Of a DNA stretch of 64,000 nt, positions 36 to 49,177 are shown in pieces. Numbering within the stretch: position 1 is the first letter of the stretch; the number at the start of each line of letters is the position of its first letter. This DNA is from a virus (taxonomy: Duplodnaviria > Heunggongvirae > Uroviricota > Caudoviricetes). The translations under genes were made by a program, and so were the position numbers. The notes below the pieces were generated by a model, which worked only from the letters and a program-made list of their open reading frames with translations, was not told the DNA's origin and searched no databases. Location of the stretch: the IMG/VR virus record IMGVR_UViG_3300031994_000056, one strand, 5' to 3'.

Positions 36-1976
36 TTGACACAAGAATATAGTTATATTATAGATTTTGGTAAAGGTAGAGCAAGTAACCAATATCTTAA
101 AGGTTCCATAGACCTCAAAGAAACATACATAAAAGTAAATGATAAGTTATGGTTTTACGGTAAAAACTATACAAGTGAAAACTATGCACCAGTACCTGCA
201 GGGTTGAACTACAACAATACAACAACCCCAAGTATAGGTTACGTAAATACACAAACACAAGAATTTATACCTGCACCAACGGATGGAATAAAATATTCAC
301 AAACTCGTGACATTAAGGTAATACCACCTGAAGATAATACCATTACTTTGTTGTATGGTGTTAAAAGTAATTTTAGTAAATATTCTTTATTCGGTTTAAT
401 AGCAAATGTTTCAAGTGGAACTTATGATATTTATATTGATGATGTATTATATGCAACAACTGCAAGTGAAACACAAACAGATATAGACTTTAGTACATTA
501 GGTGCTGAATATGTAAGTATAGGAACTTGCACAACACCTGAAGAGTTAGTATTACATAAAATTGTGATTAAGCCAACAAACAATGGAGAAACGATAACGA
601 GATTTGCTTGTAGAAGAACAACAGGTGCAACAGGAACACAACAACAAGGAATATTATGGGCAAATTTGCAACTAGAAAACAACTTAACATTAGGTAATTG
701 TTTTGGTACAGAAACAGCATATAACAATAGAATTTTATATGCTGTAACTGCTAAAAATAATAAGATAACAGTAACTAGTACAAGTACAAATACTACTGGT
801 TTATATTCAATATATGCAAGATGTGCTAGTTTAGTATATTCACCAATATTAGAATATAGTACTAAAGATTATATAAATGGAGTATATCTATCTTTTGACC
901 AAACAAAATTAAAAAGAATAACAATAAAAAATAATCCTAGTATAGATATGACAATAATTAGGAATGCTCAACAATTAGAAAAAATAGACATAGAAAATCC
1001 AATAAGTTTAAGAAGTAATACTGCATCAGGAAATAGTGCACAAAATGCTTATAAATTAGAATTATTTCCTAAATATGAAACTGAAACACGAATCTGTGAT
1101 AATATTAATATGTATGACACAACATCTTTATATCCAACAAAAATAAATGACAGTACAAATAAATTAAGAGAATTTTTAAGAATGTACGGTTCTTCAACTT
1201 ATCCAATGCGAGGTCTTCGTGGTTTAAAGGTAAGTAACGAAGCACCATTTAGTGGTACATCTCCACAAATCAACGTTTCCTACACAGGACTTGACAGGGA
1301 TGCACTTGTAGAGTTGTTTAATTTTCTACCTGATGTTTCAGAAGCAACAGATGGAATAACAAGAACATTAAGTTGCGTAGCAGCGACAGGAAACAATTTA
1401 ACTGTAGTAGGTAGTCCGACGATTGATGCTAATGGCGTTGCAAGTGGGTTTAGTAGTAATGATTATTTGAACATAGTAGGAAATATAAATTTATCATCTA
1501 ATTTTAAAATTCAAATAAAAATTACACCATCTTCAGTTACAACTGGTAGTAAGAAATTTTTATCAATATTTTATACTAATTCTATTTATTTAGATTTTTA
1601 TACTTCTGGAACAACCCCAAGAATAGATTGTCAATATAGTGGTGGAGCATATTGGACAGAAATTGCAACAAATTTATCTTATGACATACCTATTGTTATA
1701 ACTATCAAAGGAAATGGAACAAATTTAAACATTGATATAAATCAAAACAATGTTACACAAACAGGCACAAAAACATTGCAGAAATTAGGAATAAGTGATA
1801 TAAATGCTACTGTTTATTTAGGTAGAGGACATACTACATCTTTGCCTATGGTTAATGGCACTATTGACCTTGAAAACACATATATCAAAGTAGATAACAA
1901 CTACCTAATGAAAGGCTACCTTACTGATAACGATAGACTAATAGCAACGAATAAAGGTTGGACAATTACAGGATAA
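36..1976 (+). CDS. tail fibre-like structural protein (probably 5'-truncated by the window edge; TTG at 36)
   Basis: 646-aa ORF, Thr/Asn-rich. N-terminal GSIDLKETYIKVNDKLWFYG recurs near the C-terminus as GTIDLENTYIKVDNNYLMKG. The reading frame stays open upstream to position 3. Confidence 0.5.
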   Translation: MTQEYSYIIDFGKGRASNQYLKGSIDLKETYIKVNDKLWFYGKNYTSENYAPVPAGLNYNNTTTPSIGYVNTQTQEFIPAPTDGIKYSQTRDIKVIPPEDNTITLLYGVKSNFSKYSLFGLIANVSSGTYDIYIDDVLYATTASETQTDIDFSTLGAEYVSIGTCTTPEELVLHKIVIKPTNNGETITRFACRRTTGATGTQQQGILWANLQLENNLTLGNCFGTETAYNNRILYAVTAKNNKITVTSTSTNTTGLYSIYARCASLVYSPILEYSTKDYINGVYLSFDQTKLKRITIKNNPSIDMTIIRNAQQLEKIDIENPISLRSNTASGNSAQNAYKLELFPKYETETRICDNINMYDTTSLYPTKINDSTNKLREFLRMYGSSTYPMRGLRGLKVSNEAPFSGTSPQINVSYTGLDRDALVELFNFLPDVSEATDGITRTLSCVAATGNNLTVVGSPTIDANGVASGFSSNDYLNIVGNINLSSNFKIQIKITPSSVTTGSKKFLSIFYTNSIYLDFYTSGTTPRIDCQYSGGAYWTEIATNLSYDIPIVITIKGNGTNLNIDINQNNVTQTGTKTLQKLGISDINATVYLGRGHTTSLPMVNGTIDLENTYIKVDNNYLMKGYLTDNDRLIATNKGWTITG

Positions 1977-2062
1977 TGAAAGAGCTTGAAGATCGACAAA
2001 GTCATCCTTATTAAAAGAATTGGAATTTGGTTTAACAAAAAATATAAAAATGGAGTAAAATA

Positions 2063-5000
2063 ATGGCTATTAAAACAACTGATAAACAACAAATTCATGT
2101 TGTAACTGATGCGAATTTTAATCATAATAAACTTATCAATGCAAAAATTGATGCTAAGGAAAATGAAATAACCAATTTACCTAGTGGAGGTAATGTTGAT
2201 GATGTTAAGGTTAATAATACATCTGTAGTAGAAAATAAGATTGCAAGTATTAATTTAAAAACTATAAATCGTCAAAGCATTGTAGGTTCTGGTAATATAG
2301 ATGTAGAGGGTGGTGGTTCAAATTTAAACGAGTTTGTTATCACGCAAGAAATATTTGATGAATATAAAAATGAAAACAATTATGCAGATTTAGCAGATAT
2401 TATTGATAGTGAAGAAATTACACAGAAAGTAATAAACTTAAATAATTTTAATTATTTCTTAAATAATTTAATAATTTCTAATAAAGATTTAACATTTAAG
2501 AATGGTAATATTATACTTGACTCTAATGGAGTTGATGGAACATGTGATAAAGCTATTACAGCATCAGGGTGTAATATAGAATTTAAAGATTGTCAAATAA
2601 GTTCTGTTAATTGTATAGGGAATACAAATGCTTTAATAGATATAAATAATACAAATCTAACATTTAATAATGTAATAGCAGATGATATAAATTTTAGTGT
2701 TACTAAAACATTTATACAAACTACTAATGCTTGTAATATAAAAATAAATGATAGTGATATAGAATTAAAAAATAATGATGCTAGTGAAGATGAACCAGAA
2801 AATATAATAACTCTTATAAAAGTATTAAATGATAATAGTAATATAAAAATTAATAATTCAATAATAAAAATAAACAAAACTAATAATCAGTTAAGATATT
2901 TTCAGCACAAAATAGTATCTACTGCAACGAACACAGATGTTGCAATAAAGATAAATAATTCTTATTTAGAAATAGAAGATAATTGGGATTTACCACATAC
3001 TCCTAAAGAATATGAGTTATCTAATATTTTTGATGTTAATTTAGATAATATTAATATAGATATAATTAATAGTTGTATAAATAATCAATCATTATTAAGA
3101 TTAGAATCTAAATATATGTTCCAACAAGGTAATACATATACTACTGATGATCCTTATTGTATTAATATTTATAATGATATAAAAATAAGAGGACATTATA
3201 CCGAAGATGAAGAATATATTTTTGAAGAAATAAATGTTGATAAAGATACTTTTCTTTCAATAGTTGATTATGCAGAAGGAGAATATATTTTTGTATATGA
3301 TGGAACTAACTGGATTTTAAATGATGAAATAGTGAATCTTGAAGATTATGGTATAACTTATATATTAGTAGATGGTGCAGAATTATATGATGGAGTAGAA
3401 ATACAAGTATATTATAATAAAGGTTATGAAGCATATGATATATTAAAAAATTTTACAGCAGATAGTGATGATATAGAAAATTATACTAAAATAATTAAAG
3501 ACACGATAATAGATGACACAGTTCCTGGTATAGAATTTATAAGAGTAGAAAATGAAGAACACTATATTAATACTATAAATGATATTTTAGAAGAAAACGA
3601 TTATCCTACAGATGATACATATTATGAAGAGTATACTTATAATAATGATGAGTGGCATTTAAAACTTTATCGTATTGTAAATGAAACTGAAGATGTTGTT
3701 ATACAAGATGAAGTAGTTGATTTAAACGAATTTGGTGATGCTATACAAATAGGATTAAATGATGAAACACCTGATTTAGTAAATGGAATGAAATTTACTG
3801 TAGTTTCACAAAATCCTTATTTAGAAAAAAGAGAATTACATATAAATAAATGTTATAATTCTGTTCTTGCACAAGATACTTCTGATGGATATAAATTTTT
3901 AGATTATTTTATAAATGTAAATAATGATACTGTTGGCGAAACTAGTGTTTTTGGTATTCATAGAATAGATAGTAAAATTATTAATACTGGTGAAATCAAT
4001 GCAGATAATGTAAATGCCGATATGTTAACTATTAATGAAGAAGAAGGAGATTATTTTTTACCTATACATAATGAAAATTTAGAAAGTAATAATGTTAAAG
4101 ATGCTATTAATGAATTAGCCAATAGAGAAATTTCAACTAATAATTTATTTGACATAAAAACAATGTCAGAGCCAATGACACAAAAAGGTTGGAGTTGTAT
4201 TTCTTATCCGACACAAAATAAATTAGATAAAGCAGGTGTTCCTACAGCTTATAATTTTTTAAAAGATAAATTGGATAATGTTGACGCAAATATTGAGGGT
4301 TGGCAAACTTGGAGTTCTTCTTATCAAGTTGGTTCTTTGCGTGCATATATAATGAACGATACATATTGTTTAGTCTTTTTTCAAGGACATATTTATAAAG
4401 CACCTATCATTAGTATTGGAACTACTTCTACTTGGGAAATAATAACTATTAATGATAATACATCTTTTATTTATGACGAAAAATGTTTGGTTAAAATAGT
4501 AGGTGATTTAGTTTTCTTTAACATAAGAACAGATAAATCATACCTTATTATTCTAAATAAAAATACTTTTGAAGTTGTAAAAATTATTGATACAGGTTTA
4601 ATAGATGATAATTGGTTTTCTTTTGTATCATTAATAAATGGTGTTGTATATTATGGTATTAATAATAGAACTTATAAATTTAATTATACAACTAACGGTA
4701 ATGATATAAATCCCGAATTAATTAGAAGTGATTTGAATATTATGGGTATTTTTAAATATTCAGGTGGCTATTATTATTTTTATATTAATGCTGACAATTG
4801 GTGTTATGTAGCAAAAACAACAGATTTATCCGGAACTTATACACAAATAGCAAGTTTTGGTTTTTCGGGTTGGACTCGTTTTAGCAAAAATGCTATTGCT
4901 AGTAATCCCGTTCAGTTTGATAATAATGGCAATCTTTATTTAATAGACGGAAGTATAAAAGTTGCAAAAAATATTAAAAGTTGGAACGGAACAGCACAAT

Positions 5001-8484: not shown

Positions 8485-8521
8485 GAGACGTCATATTTAT
8501 ATGTGACGCCTCTTTTTTTTT
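8485..8521 (+). terminator. rho-independent terminator
   Basis: gagacgtca / tgacgcctc stem (8 of 9 bp) followed by a run of nine T. Confidence 0.75.
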
Positions 8522-8524
8522 ACT

Positions 8525-9580
8525 ATGAAAACATTAACTAAATATATTAAAAATAATAAATTTAATTATATATTTATTAAGAAAAATTACTTAACTCAAG
8601 AAGTTAATAATGTACTTAATAAATATAATTTAACTTTACAAGAATTGTGTTATAGAATTAAAAACAATATTCCTTTAGATGAGGTATTTAAATGTAATTA
8701 TTGTGGTAAGAAAATAGTATTACGCAAAAAAGATAAATATTATAAAAAATTTTGTAATTGTACTTGTGCCAATTCTTATAGAAACAAATCACAAGAGTTT
8801 AAAAATAAGAGAAAACAGACTTGGTTAAATAAATATGGTGTAGATTTTCCTGTGAAATTACAAACAACACAAGACAAACGTAAACGAACTTGTATGGAAA
8901 AATATGGAGTAAATAGTCCTGTTAAATCTAAAGAAGTACATAATAAAATAGAAGCCACTTGTTTAAAAAAATATGGTGTTAAGCATTATGCGCAAACAAA
9001 AGAGTATCGAAATTTTGTAAAAGCAAATCATAATAAATTAGTAGAGAAAGCTAAAGTTACATGTCTGAAGAAATATGGAGTAGAGCATTATTCTAAAACA
9101 CAAGAATATAAAGATAAAATGAAACATTATAATACTGTTATTCAACAAAAGATTTATGATACTAAAAAAGTAAATAATTCATTTACTAAATCAAAACAAG
9201 AAGAGAAAGTTTATAAGCTTTTACTGACTAAATTTACTAAAGAAGATATCGAACGTCAATATAAGTCAAAATTATACCCTTTCAATTGTGATTTTTATAT
9301 TAAAAGTATAGACTTATATATTGAGTATAATGGAAATTGGACGCATGGTCCTGAATTATTTAATATAGATAATGTAGAGCATCTCAAATTACTGAATTAT
9401 TGGAAAAATAAAATAAACGAATTAAATTTTAAAGGTAAGAAAAAGGATTATTTTAAGATAGCTATTTACGTATGGACAGATTTAGATGTTAGAAAGTTAA
9501 AAGCTTTTAAAGATAATAATTTAAATTACAAGATTTTTTGGAATATTAAAGAAGTTGAAGATTGGATAAGTAAAATATAA
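8525..9580 (+). CDS. putative free-standing homing-endonuclease-like protein (Zn finger, 4x KYGV repeats, Vsr/DUF559-like PD-(D/E)xK C-terminus)
   Basis: CNYCGKK...CNCTC zinc finger; four repeats of about 23 aa (TWLNKYGVDF / TCMEKYGVNS / TCLKKYGVKH / TCLKKYGVEH); C-terminal CDFYI...IEYNGNWTHG resembles Vsr/DUF559 nucleases. Confidence 0.45.
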   Translation: MKTLTKYIKNNKFNYIFIKKNYLTQEVNNVLNKYNLTLQELCYRIKNNIPLDEVFKCNYCGKKIVLRKKDKYYKKFCNCTCANSYRNKSQEFKNKRKQTWLNKYGVDFPVKLQTTQDKRKRTCMEKYGVNSPVKSKEVHNKIEATCLKKYGVKHYAQTKEYRNFVKANHNKLVEKAKVTCLKKYGVEHYSKTQEYKDKMKHYNTVIQQKIYDTKKVNNSFTKSKQEEKVYKLLLTKFTKEDIERQYKSKLYPFNCDFYIKSIDLYIEYNGNWTHGPELFNIDNVEHLKLLNYWKNKINELNFKGKKKDYFKIAIYVWTDLDVRKLKAFKDNNLNYKIFWNIKEVEDWISKI

Positions 9581-10846: not shown

Positions 10847-11593
10847 ATGAAAGTAACTTTAATCGGTAAAACAAACACAGATATATTAAGTTATACTGAA
10901 TTCTTAGCATGTATAGCTAGACGCTGTTACAGTATTAAACCTTTTAGTCATATTAAAGATACTGTAATACCTAATAGTGCTGAACCTAAAAATAACCAAA
11001 TAGATGCAAATAAACTTGTTAAAAAAATAATTGAATCAGGGCATCATTCTATACTAGAACATATCTCATTAACATTTTCTATTGAAGATGTTCCAGTATA
11101 TTTAGTATCACAACTAACAAGACATAGAATGGCTTCGTTTTCCGTTACAAGTTTTAGATATAATAATTTAACAAAGAAGGATGGTTCTATAAGTCCTTTA
11201 TGGGATGTTCCGTTTGAAAGTTTAACTCATGAACAAGAAGCTGAGTTTAATAAAGCTGCACTTAGATCTTTTGCAACTTATGATCAATTAATAGAACAAG
11301 GTGTTAAACCAGAAGTAGCTAGAGGTATATTACCACAAAGTATGATGACAAATTTAATAATGACAATGAATGTTAGAGAGTTATTTCATTTTATTGATTT
11401 AAGAAATTGTTTAAGGGCTGATAAACCTATCAGAGAATTAGCTAAAGAAATTTTAAAAATATGTGAAACTCTAGACTCTTATTTATTTAGTTTTGCAAAA
11501 CATGATTGTATTAGTTGCAGTAAATTTACAACGTGTGATGTAGTAAGAAAAACACCAACTTGTAAATATAATATGGTGGAGGAAAAGAAATGA
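10847..11593 (+). CDS. thyX: flavin-dependent thymidylate synthase ThyX
   Basis: GHHSILEH and the ThyX signature RHRMASFSVTS (RHR-x7-S); 248 aa. Confidence 0.85.
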   Translation: MKVTLIGKTNTDILSYTEFLACIARRCYSIKPFSHIKDTVIPNSAEPKNNQIDANKLVKKIIESGHHSILEHISLTFSIEDVPVYLVSQLTRHRMASFSVTSFRYNNLTKKDGSISPLWDVPFESLTHEQEAEFNKAALRSFATYDQLIEQGVKPEVARGILPQSMMTNLIMTMNVRELFHFIDLRNCLRADKPIRELAKEILKICETLDSYLFSFAKHDCISCSKFTTCDVVRKTPTCKYNMVEEKK

Positions 11594-11856
11594 ATAGATT
11601 CTTTGGAATGATGCCAAGCAAGGAAGTAGAAAAAGAAAAATGGTATGAAGATGATTTAGGACTTTCAATAGGTATTCAAGCAGGTCCACACGGATGGACA
11701 ATTATGTGGGCAGACACTAGTGCAACGTGGAAAGATAACGATGCAACTACGGAAGAAAATTTTGAAGATGCTTTAAAAACATTGAAATCATATCCTGGAT
11801 TTGATACTGTAAAAGAAAAAGGTAGTGAAAAAAGCGAAATAGCAATGGAGGAATAA
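11590..11856 (+). CDS. hypothetical protein
   Basis: 88 aa; ATGA overlap with the thyX stop. Confidence 0.5.
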   Translation: MNRFFGMMPSKEVEKEKWYEDDLGLSIGIQAGPHGWTIMWADTSATWKDNDATTEENFEDALKTLKSYPGFDTVKEKGSEKSEIAMEE

Positions 11857-11857
11857 T

Positions 11858-12106
11858 ATGTGTGACGATTTAAAATGTAATGCAAATAATCTTGATCTTG
11901 TTAAAGGTGAAGATGTTATAATCAAAGAGAACTTAATTTGGAAAATAAAACGTATGGCAGGTATGTATATAAGAGAAGCAAATTATACCACAGAGGATTA
12001 CATCCATAATTTTGATAAAACAAGAGGTATGATATATTTTGTAGATGAAATTGTTAAAACAATTCGTGATTTGAAAATAGATACAACGAAAGGAGAAAGT
12101 AAATGA
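11858..12106 (+). CDS. hypothetical protein
   Basis: 82 aa; coupled. Confidence 0.45.
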   Translation: MCDDLKCNANNLDLVKGEDVIIKENLIWKIKRMAGMYIREANYTTEDYIHNFDKTRGMIYFVDEIVKTIRDLKIDTTKGESK

Positions 12107-12576: not shown

Positions 12577-12973
12577 TTTAGCAAGATTAACACAGTTATT
12601 AAGTAACAATTTGAAAGATTACAATATTATATTACAAACACTACTAAACACTAATAAAGCCAAAGAACCAAGCGTTATTTTTGATGGTACAGATACTGTA
12701 ACATATATAATACCTGGTTGTGATATAATACAATTTAAAATATTTAAACAAAATAATAATGAACAATATTTTTTATATACTGATAAAGGAAATTTATGTT
12801 ATACTAATGATTATATAAAAGATAAAGGAGTTGCACTTCATAATAGAATAATTTTAGAAAAACCAACTTATGATGAGGTGTATGATTTCTGTTATACTTA
12901 TTATGTGCATCCATTAACATTAAATAAAGATAAATATAAAAGTATAAATAAAATATTTAAAAGGAAAAGATAA
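12560..12973 (+). CDS. hypothetical protein
   Basis: 137-aa ORF. Confidence 0.45.
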   Translation: MEKIDSLARLTQLLSNNLKDYNIILQTLLNTNKAKEPSVIFDGTDTVTYIIPGCDIIQFKIFKQNNNEQYFLYTDKGNLCYTNDYIKDKGVALHNRIILEKPTYDEVYDFCYTYYVHPLTLNKDKYKSINKIFKRKR

Positions 12974-17719: not shown

Positions 17720-17881
17720 ATGATAAATACTAATACAAAAGAAATAACATTTACGATGGATACAAAAAATAATAGATATTATTTTGGATGTGGAATATTT
17801 TATATATTTTATACAAGAGTTAATAGAAATAATTTAAATAATTATTCATGTCATTTTATAGGCAAGGAGTTAAAAAAATGA
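17720..17881 (+). CDS. hypothetical small protein (52 aa)
   Basis: Its stop overlaps the next gene's start (ATGA at 17878). Confidence 0.35.
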   Translation: MINTNTKEITFTMDTKNNRYYFGCGIFYIFYTRVNRNNLNNYSCHFIGKELKK

Positions 17882-19419
17882 GTTTAATTATTGCAGGGTT
17901 TCCCGGTATGGGTAAAGATGTTGATATAAATACACCAGTATTAACTTTAAATGGGTGGACAAAAGCAGGTAATATAAAATTAGGTGATTATTTAATTGGA
18001 CAAAATGGTAGACCAACTAAAGTTGTAGGTGTGTATCCACAAGGTGTTTTAGATAAATATGAAATAACTTTCAATGACAATACAAAAACAAATTGTGGTA
18101 TAGATCATTTATGGCAAGTAGCAAAAACAATAAATAAAAAAACAAATGAACCAAGATGGCAAGTTTTAAGTTTAAGAGAAATAATTAAAGATGGTATTGT
18201 TCGCAAATATGGAAATAAAATAAAGAGCAAATGGAGAATACCACTTACACAACCTGTACAATTTGAAGAACAAAAACATATAATAGATTCTTATATTTTA
18301 GGAACGTTAATAGGTAATGGCTATTTATGTGGCAATGTTGTTGAATATATTGGCTCTAATGAAGATAACTTTATAATAGATAAAATAAAAAAACTAATTA
18401 ACAATAAAAATATTTCTTTTGAAAATTGCACAACAAAAAATCAAACTTGCAACCACTATAAATTTATTAGGAAAAATAAACAAAATGAATATAAAAAAGA
18501 AATTAATAGACTTGGATTAAATGTAAAATCTGGACAAAAGTTTATACCAAAAGAATATTTAGTTGATTCTATAGAAAACAGAATAAAATTGTTAAATGGT
18601 TTAATGGATACTGATGGTTCAAGCAATCCAAGAAATAGAATTACATATTCAACAACTTCTAAACAACTTGTAGAAAATATTATAGAACTAGTACAGTCAT
18701 TAGGTGGAATGGCATGGTGTCATGTTTATAATAGAATTGGGAGAGAAAAGGAATACAAAGGAAAAAAGTATATTACAAAATCACTTGAGTACACAATTAG
18801 AATCACATTAAATAATATTTGTCCTTTTTCATTACCGAGAAAAGCTAAAAATTGGAGAAAAACAAAGTTTAAAAGATATTTGATTGATATTAAAAAAATT
18901 AAACCTGCAGAATCTGTTTGTTTTAGAGTTGATAATAAAGATGGACTGTTTTTAATAGAGAACTATATTGTAACACATAATTCTTCTTTATTTAATGAGA
19001 ATAAAGAATATTATTCTGATAGTGATAGTTCAAAATTTAATAAAAAAGATTTTCCAAATAACTATATAAAACATATTAAAAGTATTATGGGAAAAAAACA
19101 ATTAATACTTGTTTCTTCTCATATAGAAGTAAGAAATGCTTTAGTAAAAGAAAACATACCTTTTATTTATGTATTACCTACGCTTGATAGATTAGAAGAA
19201 TTTTGTAGTAATTATGAGAAGCGTGGATCATCAAAAGAATTTATAGAAAAAGTTAGAAAGAATTGGGAACAATGGTTAATGATTTCTGGATATAATACAG
19301 AGTATCCAGTTTACTTTTGTAAGCATGGTTATTTAAAAGATAATTTAGAAGGTATAGTAAAAGAGTATAATAAATTCTATAATGAACAAGTAAATAGAAT
19401 GATTAATTGGCAGGTATAA
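17878..19419 (+). CDS. P-loop NTPase / kinase-like protein interrupted by an intein in the Walker-A motif
   Basis: N-extein MSLIIAGFPGMGK plus C-extein SSLF... rebuilds GxxGxGKS; AAGGAG ribosome-binding site before the ATG at 17878; extein is about 165 aa. Confidence 0.65.
   Translation: MSLIIAGFPGMGKDVDINTPVLTLNGWTKAGNIKLGDYLIGQNGRPTKVVGVYPQGVLDKYEITFNDNTKTNCGIDHLWQVAKTINKKTNEPRWQVLSLREIIKDGIVRKYGNKIKSKWRIPLTQPVQFEEQKHIIDSYILGTLIGNGYLCGNVVEYIGSNEDNFIIDKIKKLINNKNISFENCTTKNQTCNHYKFIRKNKQNEYKKEINRLGLNVKSGQKFIPKEYLVDSIENRIKLLNGLMDTDGSSNPRNRITYSTTSKQLVENIIELVQSLGGMAWCHVYNRIGREKEYKGKKYITKSLEYTIRITLNNICPFSLPRKAKNWRKTKFKRYLIDIKKIKPAESVCFRVDNKDGLFLIENYIVTHNSSLFNENKEYYSDSDSSKFNKKDFPNNYIKHIKSIMGKKQLILVSSHIEVRNALVKENIPFIYVLPTLDRLEEFCSNYEKRGSSKEFIEKVRKNWEQWLMISGYNTEYPVYFCKHGYLKDNLEGIVKEYNKFYNEQVNRMINWQV
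17917..18981 (+). mobile_element. intein (355 aa) with a LAGLIDADG homing-endonuclease domain; class-3-like features
   Basis: Block A DVDINTPVLTLNG (first residue is Asp, not Cys/Ser); LAGLIDADG motifs ILGTLIGNGY and LLNGLMDTDGS; C-terminal IVTHN followed by Ser +1; Trp in DHLW, Cys in SVCF and Thr in VTHN form a WCT triad. Confidence 0.6.
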
Positions 19420-20284: not shown

Positions 20285-20295
20285 ATGGAAATTAT

Positions 20296-20389
20296 GGAGG
20301 GATGGCAGAGTTGGTTTATTGCAGAGGTTTGCTAAACCTCCGTGGCAGTTGTAAAACTACCACCACTGGTCCGAATCCAGTTCCCTCCG
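20296..20389 (+). tRNA. tRNA-Ser (anticodon GCU), long variable arm
   Basis: Acceptor ggaggga/tccctcc, anticodon loop ttGCTaa, T-arm actgg-tccgaat-ccagt; 94 nt. Confidence 0.65.
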
Positions 20390-20397
20390 TTTTAATG

Positions 20398-20523
20398 TGA
20401 GGAGTAGTATAAATTTAAATGGCAGTACGTGGGTACCTCGTAAAATGTGGGACGCTTCCCTAGGATAGTAGAGGTAGATAAAAGCTCAGCCAAAATCCAG
20501 GTTCGATCCCTGGCTCTTCACCA
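20398..20523 (+). ncRNA. atypical tRNA-like element with a CCA-like 3' end and an insertion of about 50 nt
   Basis: T-arm ccagg-ttcgatc-cctgg plus ctcttca-cca at 20497-20523; the only complementary 5' acceptor strand (tgaggag) is at 20398; D-arm-like gtat...atac. Confidence 0.3.
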
Positions 20524-20615
20524 AATTTGTTCTTTAAAAATAAAAGAGTGGCGGAATAATATGGAGAGAATGTATGCCAGTATAGAGTGAAATTCTCTAT
20601 CTCTTTTATAATAGA

Positions 20616-20686
20616 TTCTTCCTCGTCCAACGGTAGGACATAGGTTTTTGGAACCTACAATTCTGGTTCGAATCCAGGGGAAGAAA
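20616..20686 (+). tRNA. tRNA-Gln (anticodon UUG)
   Basis: Acceptor ttcttcc/ggaagaa (U1:A72), D-arm gtcc-aacggta-ggac, anticodon loop ttTTGga, T-arm tctgg-ttcgaat-ccagg. Confidence 0.7.
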
Positions 20687-20688
20687 GT

Positions 20689-20760
20689 GCTACTGTGGCT
20701 CAATGGTAGAGCGCCTGCTTTGTAAGCAGGATGTTGGAGGTTCAAGTCCTCTCGGTAGCT
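20689..20760 (+). tRNA. tRNA-Thr (anticodon UGU)
   Basis: Acceptor gctactg/cggtagc, D-arm gctc-aatggta-gagc, anticodon loop ttTGTaa, T-loop ttcaagt. Confidence 0.8.
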
Positions 20761-20763
20761 TGT

Positions 20764-20807
20764 TTGCGATATAGCTCAATGGTGGAGCTTTATAATGTGG
20801 AGGTTAT
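20764..20807 (+). pseudogene. truncated tRNA fragment (5' acceptor and D-arm only)
   Basis: gcgatat-a-gctc-aatggt-ggagc reads as a tRNA 5' half, but no T-arm follows before the next tRNA. Confidence 0.3.
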
Positions 20808-20882
20808 TGGGAAGTAGCTCAATTGGTAGAGCGTTCGGCTGTTAACCGAAAGGTTTTGTGGGTTCGAAACCCACCTTCCCAG
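20808..20882 (+). tRNA. tRNA-Asn (anticodon GUU)
   Basis: D-arm gctc-aattggta-gagc, anticodon stem ttcgg/ccgaa with loop ctGTTaa, T-arm gtggg-ttcgaaa-cccac, acceptor cttccca. Confidence 0.7.
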
Positions 20883-20891
20883 TTTTAAATA

Positions 20892-20973
20892 GCAGGTATA
20901 GAGAAACGGCTCTCTCAGTAGGCTCATAACCTACCCTCGTAAGAGTAAGATGGGTTCAACTCCCACACCTGCA
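20892..20973 (+). tRNA. tRNA with a CAU anticodon (Met or Ile-lysidine), atypical long variable region
   Basis: Anticodon arm gtagg-ctCATaa-cctac, T-arm tggg-ttcaact-ccca, acceptor gcaggt/acctgc; a variable region of about 15 nt is unusual for a CAU tRNA. Confidence 0.45.
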
Positions 20974-20979
20974 ACCATT

Positions 20980-21053
20980 CCAGGAGTAGGATAATTAGCT
21001 ATTCCGCTCGCTTTGGGAGCGAGAGACTCCGTGTGCAAGTCACGGCTCCTGGA
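20980..21053 (+). tRNA. tRNA-Pro (anticodon UGG)
   Basis: Acceptor ccaggag/ctcctgg, anticodon stem ctcgc/gcgag with loop ttTGGga, T-arm ccgtg-tgcaagt-cacgg; a T-run follows. Confidence 0.6.
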
Positions 21054-21080
21054 TATTTTTATTTATACTGGAGTTAAAAA

Positions 21081-35457: not shown

Positions 35458-35469
35458 AGGAGGACAAAG

Positions 35470-36756
35470 ATGGGAATAGAAAGAGTTAATAATTGTATAA
35501 ACAAATTAGCATTTAACTTTGAAACTCTTTGGTTTCTTGACGTCCTTTATAACATTAACATTGAGGTACTGGATGCTGAGAAGTGTCCAGCACCTACAGC
35601 TTGTGTAATGTTTAAAGACTTCAAGATTAATATGTTCTTTAACAAAGAGTTCATTGATAAGTTAAATGATGATGAGTTATTAGGTTTAATACTTCATGAA
35701 ACATTACATTTATCTTTGTATCATAATGTTAGAAATAAAAATAAAAATGGACAGTTATGGAACATAGCTTGTGATTTAGAAGTAAATTCTATAATAAATA
35801 GTTTAGGATTTAAATTACCTGAAGGTGGTTTAATGCCACAGAAAGACTTTAATTTACCTACAAGATTGAGTGCTGAAAATTACTATGACCAAATCTATAA
35901 AGAGTTAGAACAGCAAATGCAAAATGGTAAGGGTAAAGGTAATGGAAGTGGAGTTGGTATTAGTATAGAAGGTAAATGTACATTAGATAGCCATGACCAT
36001 TGGAGCAAAACTGAAAGTGAAAGTGAGTTGGTAAAACAAGTTATAGATAGTGTGGTTAAGTCAGCGATAGAAAAGAATGCACAAGATATTGAGAAGTCTT
36101 CTATAAAAGATAATATTACTTCAGCATTGAAAGATGCAAATGGTATGAAGAAAAGTAGTAGGTATGGTAATAGTCCAGGAGATTTTATATCAAAGGTTAA
36201 AGTTACAGGTAATGGTAAAGTTAAATGGAATTTCATATTGAATAGACTTATAAGAAAAACATTATCTTCAAACTATCTTTCTTCCTTTAAAAGAACTTCA
36301 AGAAGATATGGAGAACTTGTTAAAGGTAAGATTAAAAACCATAAGATAGATAATATTATTGTAGCTGTAGATACTTCAGGAAGTATAGATGAAAAACTTC
36401 ACGAAAGATTTATGGAAGAAATAATATTAATCAGAAGAATGTTTAAGGTAGAGATAAGATATATTCAATGTGATACAGAGATAACACAAGACATTAAGTT
36501 GAAAAGATATACAGACATAGAGAACATTGAAATTAAAGGTGGTGGTGGTACAGACTTTGTTCCTGTGTTTGAGTATATCAAACAGAAACATTATACTCCA
36601 AATGCAATATTATATTTCACAGATGGTCAAGGAAGATATCCAGAGAAATCTAATATAGATACACTTTGGATATTAAGTGATGATGATTGCTTAAGATATG
36701 GAGATGCACCACCGTTTGGATATAAGTTATTCTTAAATGAAAAAAATGAAAAATAA
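35470..36756 (+). CDS. VWA-domain protein with an N-terminal HExxH metallopeptidase-like domain (DUF2201-like partner of the MoxR ATPase)
   Basis: HETLH motif; MIDAS motif VAVDTSGSI; C-terminal GGGGTDFVPVFEY. Confidence 0.6.
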   Translation: MGIERVNNCINKLAFNFETLWFLDVLYNINIEVLDAEKCPAPTACVMFKDFKINMFFNKEFIDKLNDDELLGLILHETLHLSLYHNVRNKNKNGQLWNIACDLEVNSIINSLGFKLPEGGLMPQKDFNLPTRLSAENYYDQIYKELEQQMQNGKGKGNGSGVGISIEGKCTLDSHDHWSKTESESELVKQVIDSVVKSAIEKNAQDIEKSSIKDNITSALKDANGMKKSSRYGNSPGDFISKVKVTGNGKVKWNFILNRLIRKTLSSNYLSSFKRTSRRYGELVKGKIKNHKIDNIIVAVDTSGSIDEKLHERFMEEIILIRRMFKVEIRYIQCDTEITQDIKLKRYTDIENIEIKGGGGTDFVPVFEYIKQKHYTPNAILYFTDGQGRYPEKSNIDTLWILSDDDCLRYGDAPPFGYKLFLNEKNEK

Positions 36757-47057: not shown

Positions 47058-47351
47058 ATGTTTGATTATGTATTATATGTAATAAAGTTCTTGACATTTG
47101 TTATTGGTATCGGGACTTACATTTTTCAATGGGCAAGTTTGATGTATGAAATTATAGAAGGAGAAGTTAAAAATAAAAAAGAAATTATATGGAAAGTTAT
47201 ACCTTTTGGTTTTCTAATACTCGTAGTTTGGAAGTGGCAAGAACTTAGCAAAAAAGAGTTTGTTTATGAAGCAGAAGTTGTAAATAAAGAAGAAGTAGGA
47301 GTTGTAAATACAGAAAAAAAGGAGGAAAGAAAATGTTTGAAAAATATATAG
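47058..47351 (+). CDS. small membrane protein
   Basis: 97 aa, two TM helices. Confidence 0.45.
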   Translation: MFDYVLYVIKFLTFVIGIGTYIFQWASLMYEIIEGEVKNKKEIIWKVIPFGFLILVVWKWQELSKKEFVYEAEVVNKEEVGVVNTEKKEERKCLKNI

Positions 47352-49177
47352 GACAAAATCACATTAAAGATTTACTTTCAAAGTTTATTACTTACAGTAA
47401 ATCTTCAACAGAACCTTTGCAACATATGTTAATTACTGGTTCTTCGGGTGCGGGTAAGACGACATTAGCAAATGCAATCGCAAAAGAACTTGGAGTTAAA
47501 TGTGTATCGTTACTTGCAACAAATGCATCTGAAGATGATTTGATAAAAGCAATCTGCAATTTGAGTGATAAAGATATCTTGTTCATAGATGAATGTTTAT
47601 CTGGTGATACAGAAGTTTTAACCGAAAACGGTTATATAAGATTAGATAAATTAACAACTGAAACTCGTGTAGCTCAATGGAATAATGGAGTTATCGAATT
47701 TGTTTATCCAGAAAGAATAGTTAAAAAATATGCAAAGAAAGTTTATGAATTGCCTATAAAAGACAATATGATATTGTATCAAACAGAACATCATAGAAAT
47801 CTTATATATGATAAACAGTCAAAAACAAATAAAGTAAAATACCCTTCACAGTTAACAAGTGCACATAGTGTTATTTGTTCTGGAAAGATAAAAGATAAAC
47901 ATAATAAGTTAACTTTATTAGAAAAATTAATTATTATGACACAAGCTGATGGGTCAGTTAATGATAAAAATGTCGCAGGTATTCCAGTTACATTTTCGAT
48001 TTCATTATCTAAGCAAAGAAAAATAAAGTATTTAAATTCATTAATAAAATTAGATATAAATAACTCTTTTAAAATACGTGAAGTAAAAGGTGCTAAAGCT
48101 CATGAGAATGTAAAATCAATGAAACGTTGGTTGTATAATTTACCTAAAACTTCAAAAGATTATAAACTATTATCTAATTGGTTTACTTTAACTGATTTTG
48201 ATTTATCTAAAGCAAATGAGTTTTTAAAGAATATATTTATTTGGGATTCTGCAGACTATGCTACTGGTAAAGTATATTGTACTACGGAAAAAGCTAATGC
48301 TGAATTTGTATATCAAGTAATGGTTCTCGCAGGTTATACACCATATATAAGTAAGCAAATTGATAAAAGAGGTTACAAAACACATTATAGAGTTTATATG
48401 CCAGATAAAACACGTAAATTATCTTTGCAGCATATACATGAAAAAAGAAAGCTTATTGATTGGAATGATTATATGTATTGTATAACAGTACCTTCTACAT
48501 TTTTTATAGTAAAAAAAGATGGATATACATTTGTAACAGGTAATTGTCATGCATTGAATAAGAAACTTATTGAGATATTGTTTCCAATAATAAGTGAACA
48601 TATATTATACACAAAGTATCAAGGAGTGATGACTAGGTTTAGAGTATCAAACTTTACTATCATTGGAGCAACAACTCATGAAGGTAAGTTACCGACTGCA
48701 TTCTTAAATAGATTTACAGTTACTTTAAATCTTAAACCTTATACTGAAAGTGAATTGTCTACAATGACAAAACTATATCTCGGACAATATAAAGCAGATG
48801 ATACTATGCTTAATGCAATTGTGAATATGTCTAAAGGAGTTCCAAGAATTATAACAAATATAGTTAATAGTGTGAAAGTTTATTTGAAAAGTTTAGGTAA
48901 GGATACATTAGAGCAGAAAGACTTAAAGATGATACAAATGTTTTTAGGTGTTAATGACATTGGTTTAAACAATGTTGACTTCGAAATATTAAAGTATCTC
49001 TGCAAAGTTAAAGCTGCATCGTTAAAAACTCTTGCAAGTGTATTGAGTATTGAAGCAATTAATATCGAGCAGATACATGAACCATACTTAATTAAACTTG
49101 GTTTCATTGAAAGATGTTCTGCAGGAAGAACAATTACAGATGCAGGAAGAAAATATTTAGTTGACAAACAAATTTAA
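47333..49177 (+). CDS. ruvB: RuvB-like Holliday-junction AAA+ ATPase interrupted by an intein
   Basis: Walker A GSSGAGKTTLANAIAKELG; Walker B ILFIDE then intein then CHAL (IHRL equivalent); GATTHEGKLPTAFLNRF and GVPRII sensor regions; C-terminal winged-helix-like tail matching the RuvB layout. Confidence 0.8.
   Translation: MFEKYIGQNHIKDLLSKFITYSKSSTEPLQHMLITGSSGAGKTTLANAIAKELGVKCVSLLATNASEDDLIKAICNLSDKDILFIDECLSGDTEVLTENGYIRLDKLTTETRVAQWNNGVIEFVYPERIVKKYAKKVYELPIKDNMILYQTEHHRNLIYDKQSKTNKVKYPSQLTSAHSVICSGKIKDKHNKLTLLEKLIIMTQADGSVNDKNVAGIPVTFSISLSKQRKIKYLNSLIKLDINNSFKIREVKGAKAHENVKSMKRWLYNLPKTSKDYKLLSNWFTLTDFDLSKANEFLKNIFIWDSADYATGKVYCTTEKANAEFVYQVMVLAGYTPYISKQIDKRGYKTHYRVYMPDKTRKLSLQHIHEKRKLIDWNDYMYCITVPSTFFIVKKDGYTFVTGNCHALNKKLIEILFPIISEHILYTKYQGVMTRFRVSNFTIIGATTHEGKLPTAFLNRFTVTLNLKPYTESELSTMTKLYLGQYKADDTMLNAIVNMSKGVPRIITNIVNSVKVYLKSLGKDTLEQKDLKMIQMFLGVNDIGLNNVDFEILKYLCKVKAASLKTLASVLSIEAINIEQIHEPYLIKLGFIERCSAGRTITDAGRKYLVDKQI
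47594..48544 (+). mobile_element. intein (317 aa) with a degenerate LAGLIDADG-like endonuclease region
   Basis: Block A CLSGDTEVLTENG immediately after Walker B; ends ...FVTGN with Cys at +1; LIIMTQADGS resembles a LAGLIDADG motif. Confidence 0.65.

Follow-up and report, generated by a model that had tools for sequence, protein, structure and literature searches.

What interrupts the ATP-binding loop of a small P-loop protein encoded on IMG/VR virus record IMGVR_UViG_3300031994_000056 (Caudoviricetes), and by what means could that protein be made whole again? In the window considered here, which is the whole 64,000-nucleotide (nt) stretch of this record, the lysine and the serine of a Walker A motif are separated by 355 codons, and an earlier note made from the sequence had proposed that these codons are a class-3-like intein carrying a LAGLIDADG endonuclease. 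The segment is an intein of 355 amino acids (aa) lying in the Walker A loop between Lys13 and Ser14. Judged by the residues that it carries, it is very probably a class 3 bifunctional intein that splices from its phage P-loop precursor via an internal cysteine, Cys335.

A precise insertion in a P-loop gene

The boundaries of the insert are fixed by an empty allele. Three metagenomic contigs (L001–L003) are syntenic with about 11.3–25.2 kb of the window at 93–98 per cent nt identity and lack exactly 17917–18981, a precise 1065-nt in-frame indel. All three encode the homologue P0001, which is 91 per cent identical to the spliced protein and the closest to it among the homologues listed. With a slash at each junction, the empty allele reads GGA ATG GGG AAG / AGC TAT TTA TTT and the occupied allele GGT ATG GGT AAA / GAT...AAT / TCT TCT TTA TTT. 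The sequence of the empty site is ...GGAATGGGGAAG/AGCTATTTATTT... (in L002, GGAATGGGGAAG/AGCTATTTA), and the occupied site is flanked as GGTATGGGTAAA...TCTTCTTTA. This comparison places the ends of the insert at Asp1 and Asn355.

The insert is in frame and missing from orthologues, and its excision restores a conserved motif of the host protein, as is required of an intein. Joining the two exteins in silico yields a product of 158 aa (18.8 kDa) and rebuilds GFPGMGK/SS, a Walker A motif (GxxxxGK[ST]) that is formed only without the intein. When the spliced protein was aligned with 21 intein-less homologues (of 557 found), the junction was ungapped and the family motif GFPGxGK[ST] was restored, with conservation at F18, P19, G20, G22 and K23 of that alignment. 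The placement of the insert between the Walker A lysine and serine, which the earlier note had made contingent on the junction rebuilding a P-loop in homologues, is therefore borne out; its interval of 17878–19419 describes the extent of the gene, whereas the intein alone occupies 17917–18981.

The precursor is encoded by a single open reading frame (ORF) at 17848..19419 on the plus strand, the true start of which is the ATG at 17878 and not 17848, given the spacing of an upstream AAGGAG and the use of the same start (MSLIIAGFPGMGK) by intein-less orthologues. From Lys13 it continues into the intein as DVDINTPVLTLNGW..., leaves it after 355 residues with ...ENYIVTHN, and resumes the host protein with SSLFNENKEYYSDSDSS...; Ser+1 (18982) doubles as the Walker A serine and as the residue at the second splicing nucleophile position. 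An exact-protein look-up of the precursor found no record.

The host protein belongs to a family that is widespread among phages. A query with the spliced protein returned 557 homologues, and all of the 120 listed are 119–288 aa long (most of them ∼150 aa), too short to hold a 355-aa intein and hence intein-less. PHROG 4182 ('unknown function') spans positions 9–150 of the spliced protein, unbroken across the junction (E 2.6e-42). This family has 209 matches in cultured phages, each a single uninterrupted stretch of up to ∼150 codons, and an intein-sized gap was found in none of the 209 cultured-phage records searched; the listed matches are labelled hypothetical protein, with one exception ('ATPase'). 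Searches of the extein against Pfam and NCBIfam gave nothing above the curated cut-offs, and no entry passed the threshold in a profile search of the PDB. Its fold is similar to those of nucleoside monophosphate (NMP) and other small-molecule kinases, a match to P-loop kinases in general only. What the intein interrupts is a small phage protein of P-loop type, folded in the manner of NMP kinases and 'kinase-like' at the level of the fold only; that description from the earlier note holds for the Walker A motif and the fold similarity, but does not extend to a named kinase family in Pfam or NCBIfam. PHROG matches of the precursor to 'terminase large subunit', 'DNA primase' and 'DnaC' were rejected, since they match inteins inside those families and not the extein.

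The splicing domain and its proposed pathway

Class 3 inteins are defined by a non-nucleophilic residue 1, by Trp at block B:12, Cys at F:4 and Thr at G:5 (the WCT triad), by Ser or Thr at +1, and by an obligate F:4 nucleophile (PMC2807308, PMC3196547, PMC5222942), and they form a single clade (PMC3196547). All of the sequence features of the class occur here: Asp1 (neither Cys, Ser nor Thr), Trp66, Cys335, Thr353 and Ser+1. They are accompanied by His64 at B:10, by the C-terminal Asn355 and by a Hint fold in the structural model, and the VTHN followed by Ser+1 that had been noticed earlier is present, with THN at 18973–18981 and Ser+1 at 18982. When all PDB sequences were searched, the best matches were 6rix, 6bs8 and 6riy (E about 2e-7), which are the DnaB class 3 inteins of Mycobacterium chimaera and M. 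smegmatis (PMC7664689, PMC6195587). Against these solved inteins DHLW falls on A(H/Q)HQW, Cys335 on the catalytic cysteine and THN on THN, and Asp1 stands opposite Ala1 of 6rix and 6bs8, given that the printed alignments share their register from residue 4. The AF2 model of the intein has a pLDDT of 96.3 and a pTM of 0.93; in a Foldseek search its best match was PI-SceI (TM 0.73, E 3e-19), other intein-endonucleases matched as well, and the best mini-intein matches were class 3 DnaB inteins.

The catalytic residues are close to invariant among relatives. Of 139 proteins found with the intein as query, the best 120 were aligned for column counts. His B:10 is present in 112/112 relatives and Trp B:12 in 110/112, and Cys F:4, Thr G:5, His G:6 and Asn G:7 are each present in 118/118. 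The +1 residue is Thr (91) or Ser (27), and the −1 residue is Lys in 97 of 107. Position 1 is most often Ala (73), then Asp (8), Glu (7), Gly (6) and Ser (4), and more rarely Gln (3), Pro (3), Leu (2), Cys (1) or Arg (1), with an acidic residue (Asp or Glu) in 15 of 108. Among the 223 nearest intein copies, taken from the best 146 proteins of a representative-cluster search, the triad is kept at ∼97 per cent (Trp 197/203, Cys 198/203, Thr 198/203), a position-1 nucleophile occurs in 19, and Glu is the second commonest residue at position 1. An acidic first residue such as Asp1 is thus a minority state, yet not an exceptional one. The class-3-like reading of the earlier note is in this way sustained by Asp1, by the alignment of the triad to solved class 3 inteins, and by its near-invariance in 120 and then 223 copies. 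Placement in the class 3 clade is drawn from the best PDB matches and triad conservation, and on that footing the intein is assigned to class 3, as a typical member of a very large family.

The size of that family bears on how the finding should be regarded. When 1.84 billion representative proteins were searched exhaustively, 17,329 matched at E<=1e-3, of which 4,224 reached E<=1e-30, and the nearest clusters checked were almost all class 3. The intein also matches 823 cultured-phage records from many hosts, and members of its family occur in cultured phages that infect, among others, Lactococcus, Bacteroides, Vibrio, Staphylococcus, Klebsiella and Erwinia. With these figures, and the 1701 class 3 inteins that a 2020 survey counted in nr (82.5 per cent of them with LAGLIDADG motifs; PMC7891396), the idea that the class is uncommon and known mainly from mycobacteriophages and actinobacteria is outdated. 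The host proteins of relatives include PhoH, DnaB, terminase, AAA_24 and other P-loop ATPases, and the bond between the lysine and the Ser or Thr of GK[ST] (Lys/Thr) is a 'classic' P-loop insertion point (PMC5050341, PMC2807308). Descriptions of Walker A class 3 inteins in phage ATPases go back to 2010, and both the existence of this one and its likely mechanism are unsurprising. The same intein family was also seen at a second, non-Walker-A site in PhoH-family relatives (P0154, P0155, P0158, P0165, P0166, P0175 and P0177), where a −1 Arg closes (A/G)(Y/F)MRGR, the intein runs from A or S to VTHN, and Thr follows.

Several known systems offer close parallels. The prototype of the class, the DnaB intein of Mycobacteriophage Bethlehem (MP-Be DnaB), likewise lacks a position-1 nucleophile, has W at B:12, C at F:4, T at G:5 and Thr or Ser at +1, and is a phage-encoded intein with a LAGLIDADG endonuclease in a P-loop ATPase (PMC2807308); it differs in having Pro1, a DnaB-like helicase as host, and a high-GC (guanine plus cytosine) actinobacteriophage genome. 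M. smegmatis DnaBi1 and M. chimaera DnaB1 (6bs8, 6rix, 6riy) share the register, the HxW, the Cys F:4, the THN and the P-loop site, but are mini-inteins without an endonuclease, begin with Ala1 and reside in bacterial chromosomes (PMC6195587, PMC7664689). Mycobacteriophage TerL1-a and the P-loop inteins of PhoH, DnaB, TerL and AAA_24 also lie between the Walker A lysine and Ser/Thr (PMC5050341); those of the present family are 30–45 per cent identical to the query over the full length, in different host families. PI-SceI, the yeast VMA1 intein and the best structural match, shares the Hint domain and a two-motif LAGLIDADG domain, but is class 1 (Cys1, Cys+1), with a separate DNA-recognition region and both catalytic aspartates (218 and 326).

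A cultured low-GC counterpart is ORF58 of Lactococcus phage 949 (YP_004306218), the intein of which is ∼35 per cent identical and uses the same kind of site, GK/...VTHN/T; unlike the query, it has a larger AAA_24-type ATPase extein, Ala1, and Ile at B:12. Its 88 per cent coverage had at first suggested that gene and intein were both shared with the query, a reading rejected when translation revealed the different, larger extein. The ORF (NC_015263.1 28101..30194; 1447..3540 of our locus L007) reads GK/ALDINT...VTHN/T at its junctions and bears the RefSeq label 'terminase large subunit'. It is an AAA_24-type ATPase and not a terminase, and the 'terminase' label of phrog_19299 probably stems from such intein-containing members.

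With the intein in place the ATP-binding loop is broken, and the host protein would be functional only after splicing. By the published class 3 pathway, Cys335 would attack the peptide bond between Lys13 and Asp1, which is activated by two block B residues, His64 and Trp66, and by Thr353 of block G, to form an internal thioester branch. The N-extein would then be passed to Ser+1 by transesterification, cyclization of Asn355 would free the intein, and an O-to-N shift would leave GFPGMGKSS within the 18.8-kDa protein. A different route might be entertained, such as direct attack by Ser+1 (in the manner of class 2) or by some unrecognized nucleophile, given that the mechanism is deduced from signature residues alone and that the literature consulted yielded no tested intein with Asp1. 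It is most improbable, since class 2 inteins lack the WCT triad, are found only in KlbA genes and use Cys+1 (PMC2807308, PMC3196547), every class 3 intein tested needs Cys F:4, with Ser/Thr+1 unable to start the reaction (PMC5222942), and WCT hardly varies in the family to which the query belongs.

One further cysteine of the splicing domain deserves mention. Cys60 at B:6 (18094..18096), four residues ahead of His B:10, is shared by 78/112 relatives, many of them carrying a further Cys at B:7. A regulatory disulfide between Cys F:4 and a non-catalytic cysteine is described for M. smegmatis DnaBi1 (PMC6195587), and by analogy it is conceivable that Cys60 acts as a redox switch.

Table 1. Positions in the window of the gene, its intein and the residues discussed in the text.
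Feature	Position	Strand	Remark
Shine-Dalgarno AAGGAG	17864..17869	+	8 nt 5' of ATG 17878
N-extein MSLIIAGFPGMGK	17878..17916	+	13 aa; last residue is Walker A Lys13
Mosaic (candidate co-conversion) tract, intein excluded	17895..19216	+	extein −22 to +235; ∼15% divergent from empty allele
Whole intein, Asp1–Asn355	17917..18981	+	355 aa, 41.1 kDa; in-frame indel against L001–L003
N-terminal Hint (blocks A, B)	17917..18231	+	aligned to 6rix, 6bs8, 6riy
Asp1	17917–17919	+	
His64, block B:10 (DHLW)	18106–18108	+	
Trp66, block B:12 (DHLW)	18112–18114	+	
LAGLIDADG homing-endonuclease domain	18232..18879 (approximate limits)	+	Pfam Hom_end, LAGLIDADG_3
Motif 1, ILGTLIGNGY	18295–18324	+	Asn134 (18316–18318) at catalytic Asp position
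Motif 2, LLNGLMDTDGS	18589–18621	+	Asp233 intact
C-terminal Hint (blocks F, G)	18880..18981	+	Cys and THN aligned to 6rix, 6bs8
Cys335, block F:4 (SVCF)	18919–18921	+	
Thr353, block G:5 (VTHN)	18973–18975	+	
His354–Asn355	18976–18981	+	
C-extein	18982..19419	+	145 aa + stop; first residue Ser+1

Mobility and an altered endonuclease

The exteins around the intein carry traces of exchange. A comparison of the window, with the intein removed, against its empty relative L002 revealed 38 differences (∼15 per cent) between −22 and +235 nt of the insertion site, against 1–3 per cent in the surrounding 1.6 kb. Seven of them are packed into the 18 nt astride the insertion point (binomial P about 1e-4), and these include a change of serine codon family, AGC to TCT. 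In the usual form of homing, the LAGLIDADG domain would cut an empty allele and repair would copy the intein along with flanking extein DNA, and a mosaic tract of this kind is what would be expected from such co-conversion, or more generally from recombination with a divergent allele. A donor of the tract was sought among the known alleles and no close match was found; the event may be a gain of the intein here or its loss in the relatives.

Relatives of the intein itself give a second line of evidence. In five clusters (P0121–P0125) this intein recurs at the identical position of proteins from this host family, and compared with the query their inteins are 83–70 per cent identical while their exteins are 70.5–64 per cent identical; synonymous divergence (dS), too, is smaller for the intein than for the extein. 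The intein and extein trees are incongruent: P0123 and P0125 are 83 per cent identical in the extein and 73 per cent in the intein, whereas P0124 and P0125 are 74 per cent identical in the extein and 88 per cent in the intein. It is in part shown by these comparisons that the element is mobile, now or recently, among alleles of this gene in uncultured low-GC large phages.

A single residue bears on whether the endonuclease contributes to that mobility. The domain scan that the earlier note had suggested gave both Pfam Hom_end (30.3 bits, cut-off 21.1) and LAGLIDADG_3 (27.6 bits, cut-off 22.5) above their cut-offs, and the model displays the two LAGLIDADG helices within an alpha/beta core, with matches to PI-SceI, PI-PfuI and I-DmoI. 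Of the 'two clean LAGLIDADG motifs' described before, both are where they had been placed and motif 2 is intact, but motif 1 ends in GNG and not GDG, which leaves a catalytic acid in motif 2 only. Asn134 corresponds to Asp218 of PI-SceI by alignment register and coordinates, and the motif-1 Asp is present in 109/117 relatives (P0124 and P0125 among them) and the motif-2 Asp in 119/120. In single-chain I-CreI and I-MsoI, a single D-to-N change in one half-site kills double-strand cutting, and the D22N form of single-chain I-MsoI retains some nicking (PMC2655683). By analogy, the endonuclease is probably unable to make double-strand breaks alone, and may be a nickase or inactive.

Under the latter possibility the LAGLIDADG domain would be dead and the intein would now spread only passively, inherited vertically or exchanged between co-infecting phages by ordinary homologous recombination. 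This account of mobility has somewhat less than an even chance of being right. The Asn134 substitution and the loss of double-strand cleavage in the engineered enzymes speak for it, as does the fact that a mosaic tract alone needs no endonuclease. Between lineages bearing GNG, however, the ratio of nonsynonymous to synonymous divergence (dN/dS) is 0.12–0.19 in the endonuclease domain, 0.14–0.19 in Hint and 0.14–0.21 in the extein; a value as low as those of its neighbours indicates that the domain is not decaying freely. Within the GNG clade, moreover, inteins are more alike than exteins (83 versus 70.5 per cent; 79 versus 74.5 per cent) and the trees disagree, which suggests transfers later than the D-to-N change. 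The residual nicking by D22N I-MsoI, together with reports that homing can be driven by nicks (PMC3017599, PMC3035452), also counts against purely passive spread. It is tempting to combine the Asp-to-Asn change, the purifying selection, the greater similarity of inteins than exteins and the fresh-looking tract of ∼260 nt into a picture in which the inteins of the GNG sub-lineage (the query, P0121, P0122 and P0123) still home in phages, driven by a naturally occurring LAGLIDADG nickase, although we think this unlikely.

Several considerations weigh against the proposal that a functional class 3 bifunctional intein splices here via Cys335. Splicing and the branched intermediate are predictions from sequence, as are the activity of the endonuclease and the role of the host protein, and the class 3 inteins characterized experimentally in the literature consulted start with Pro, Ala, Ser or Cys, none having been found with Asp1. 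The host protein is without a Pfam or NCBIfam family and resembles P-loop kinases generally. The mosaic flanks could equally reflect ordinary phage–phage recombination or loss of the intein in relatives, and with one catalytic Asp missing active homing is doubtful. There is also precedent for failure in the class 3-like intein of Arthrobacter (Arsp-FB24) Arth_1007, a non-splicing pseudogene (PMC3196547). The query might by this reasoning be a decaying relic of that kind, a dead fusion protein tolerated by the phage. That such non-splicing inteins exist, that the endonuclease is altered, and that the host gene lacks a known function and is dispensable enough to vary among relatives all lend this idea something. 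The parallel with Arth_1007 is nevertheless limited, since the query has both Cys F:4 and His B:10 and that intein has neither. A relic is in fact very unlikely, given that all of the catalytic residues of the splicing domain are intact, the ORF is unbroken, and purifying selection acts on the Hint domain, the endonuclease domain and the extein alike (dN/dS 0.12–0.21), while the five further clusters, at 70–83 per cent identity, keep the arrangement and every motif and the intein is modelled very confidently. A class 3 intein that splices through Cys335 remains very much the favoured interpretation of the locus.

Genomic setting and significance

The window derives from a large, uncultured phage of low GC content (about 27 per cent), and includes tRNA genes, free-standing homing endonucleases and a second intein. 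In a search for near-identical genomes, megablast gave no match to the locus among 50,697 phage records, and the phage helicase is at most 30 per cent identical to helicases of SPO1-like Bacillus phages. With a profile made from 120 relatives to represent the class 3 family, the intein scores E 2e-132 and is the sole copy found in the window, the profile not detecting the second intein. The latter (317 aa; 47594..48544, plus strand, in an ORF starting at 47333) runs from Cys1 (CLSGDTEVLTENG...) to ...FVTGN/C, with a penultimate Gly and a +1 Cys, and lies directly after the Walker B LFIDE of an AAA+ protein resembling RuvB or a clamp loader; from its sequence it looks like a class 1 intein. The 'RuvB intein' with which the earlier note had matched block A of the class 3 intein was set aside as a different, Cys1-type intein.

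Other differences from the empty relatives are found nearby. Six tRNA genes (Ser, Gln, Thr, Asn, Met and Pro) form a cluster at 20295..21054, and 20290..20977, which holds the first five, is missing from L001–L003, where the flanks are joined directly (L002 7346/7349), a tRNA-cluster indel between close phage relatives. Two stretches with small ORFs, ∼11597..12094 (adjoining a ThyX-like gene at 10847..11593) and ∼12580..12922, are missing from the otherwise 95–98 per cent identical L002. Homing-endonuclease-like free ORFs lie on the plus strand at 8507..9577 (phrog_3339, E 3e-17) and 35458..36753 (HNH, phrog_1314, E 5e-72); with these two and its two inteins, the phage is rich in selfish elements.

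What is modestly new is the presence of an intein in PHROG 4182, a widespread small phage family of kinase fold in which 0/209 cultured-phage matches contain one. For annotation, the gene should be entered as an intein and a single 158-aa protein joined by splicing, and not as 'terminase' or 'PhoH', the labels carried by records that match the intein, and compact class 3 inteins beginning with Asp1 or Glu1 could be tried as splicing tools. Occupied and empty alleles within phage DNA that is 93–98 per cent identical, together with the mosaic tract, form a clear natural record of an intein being gained or lost. In the same family, a sub-lineage keeps its endonuclease under selection despite the change of a catalytic Asp to Asn. 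Should the GNG endonuclease prove to be a nickase that drives homing, it would be a natural counterpart of the engineered LAGLIDADG nickases, and the mobility of its intein would be initiated by a nick.

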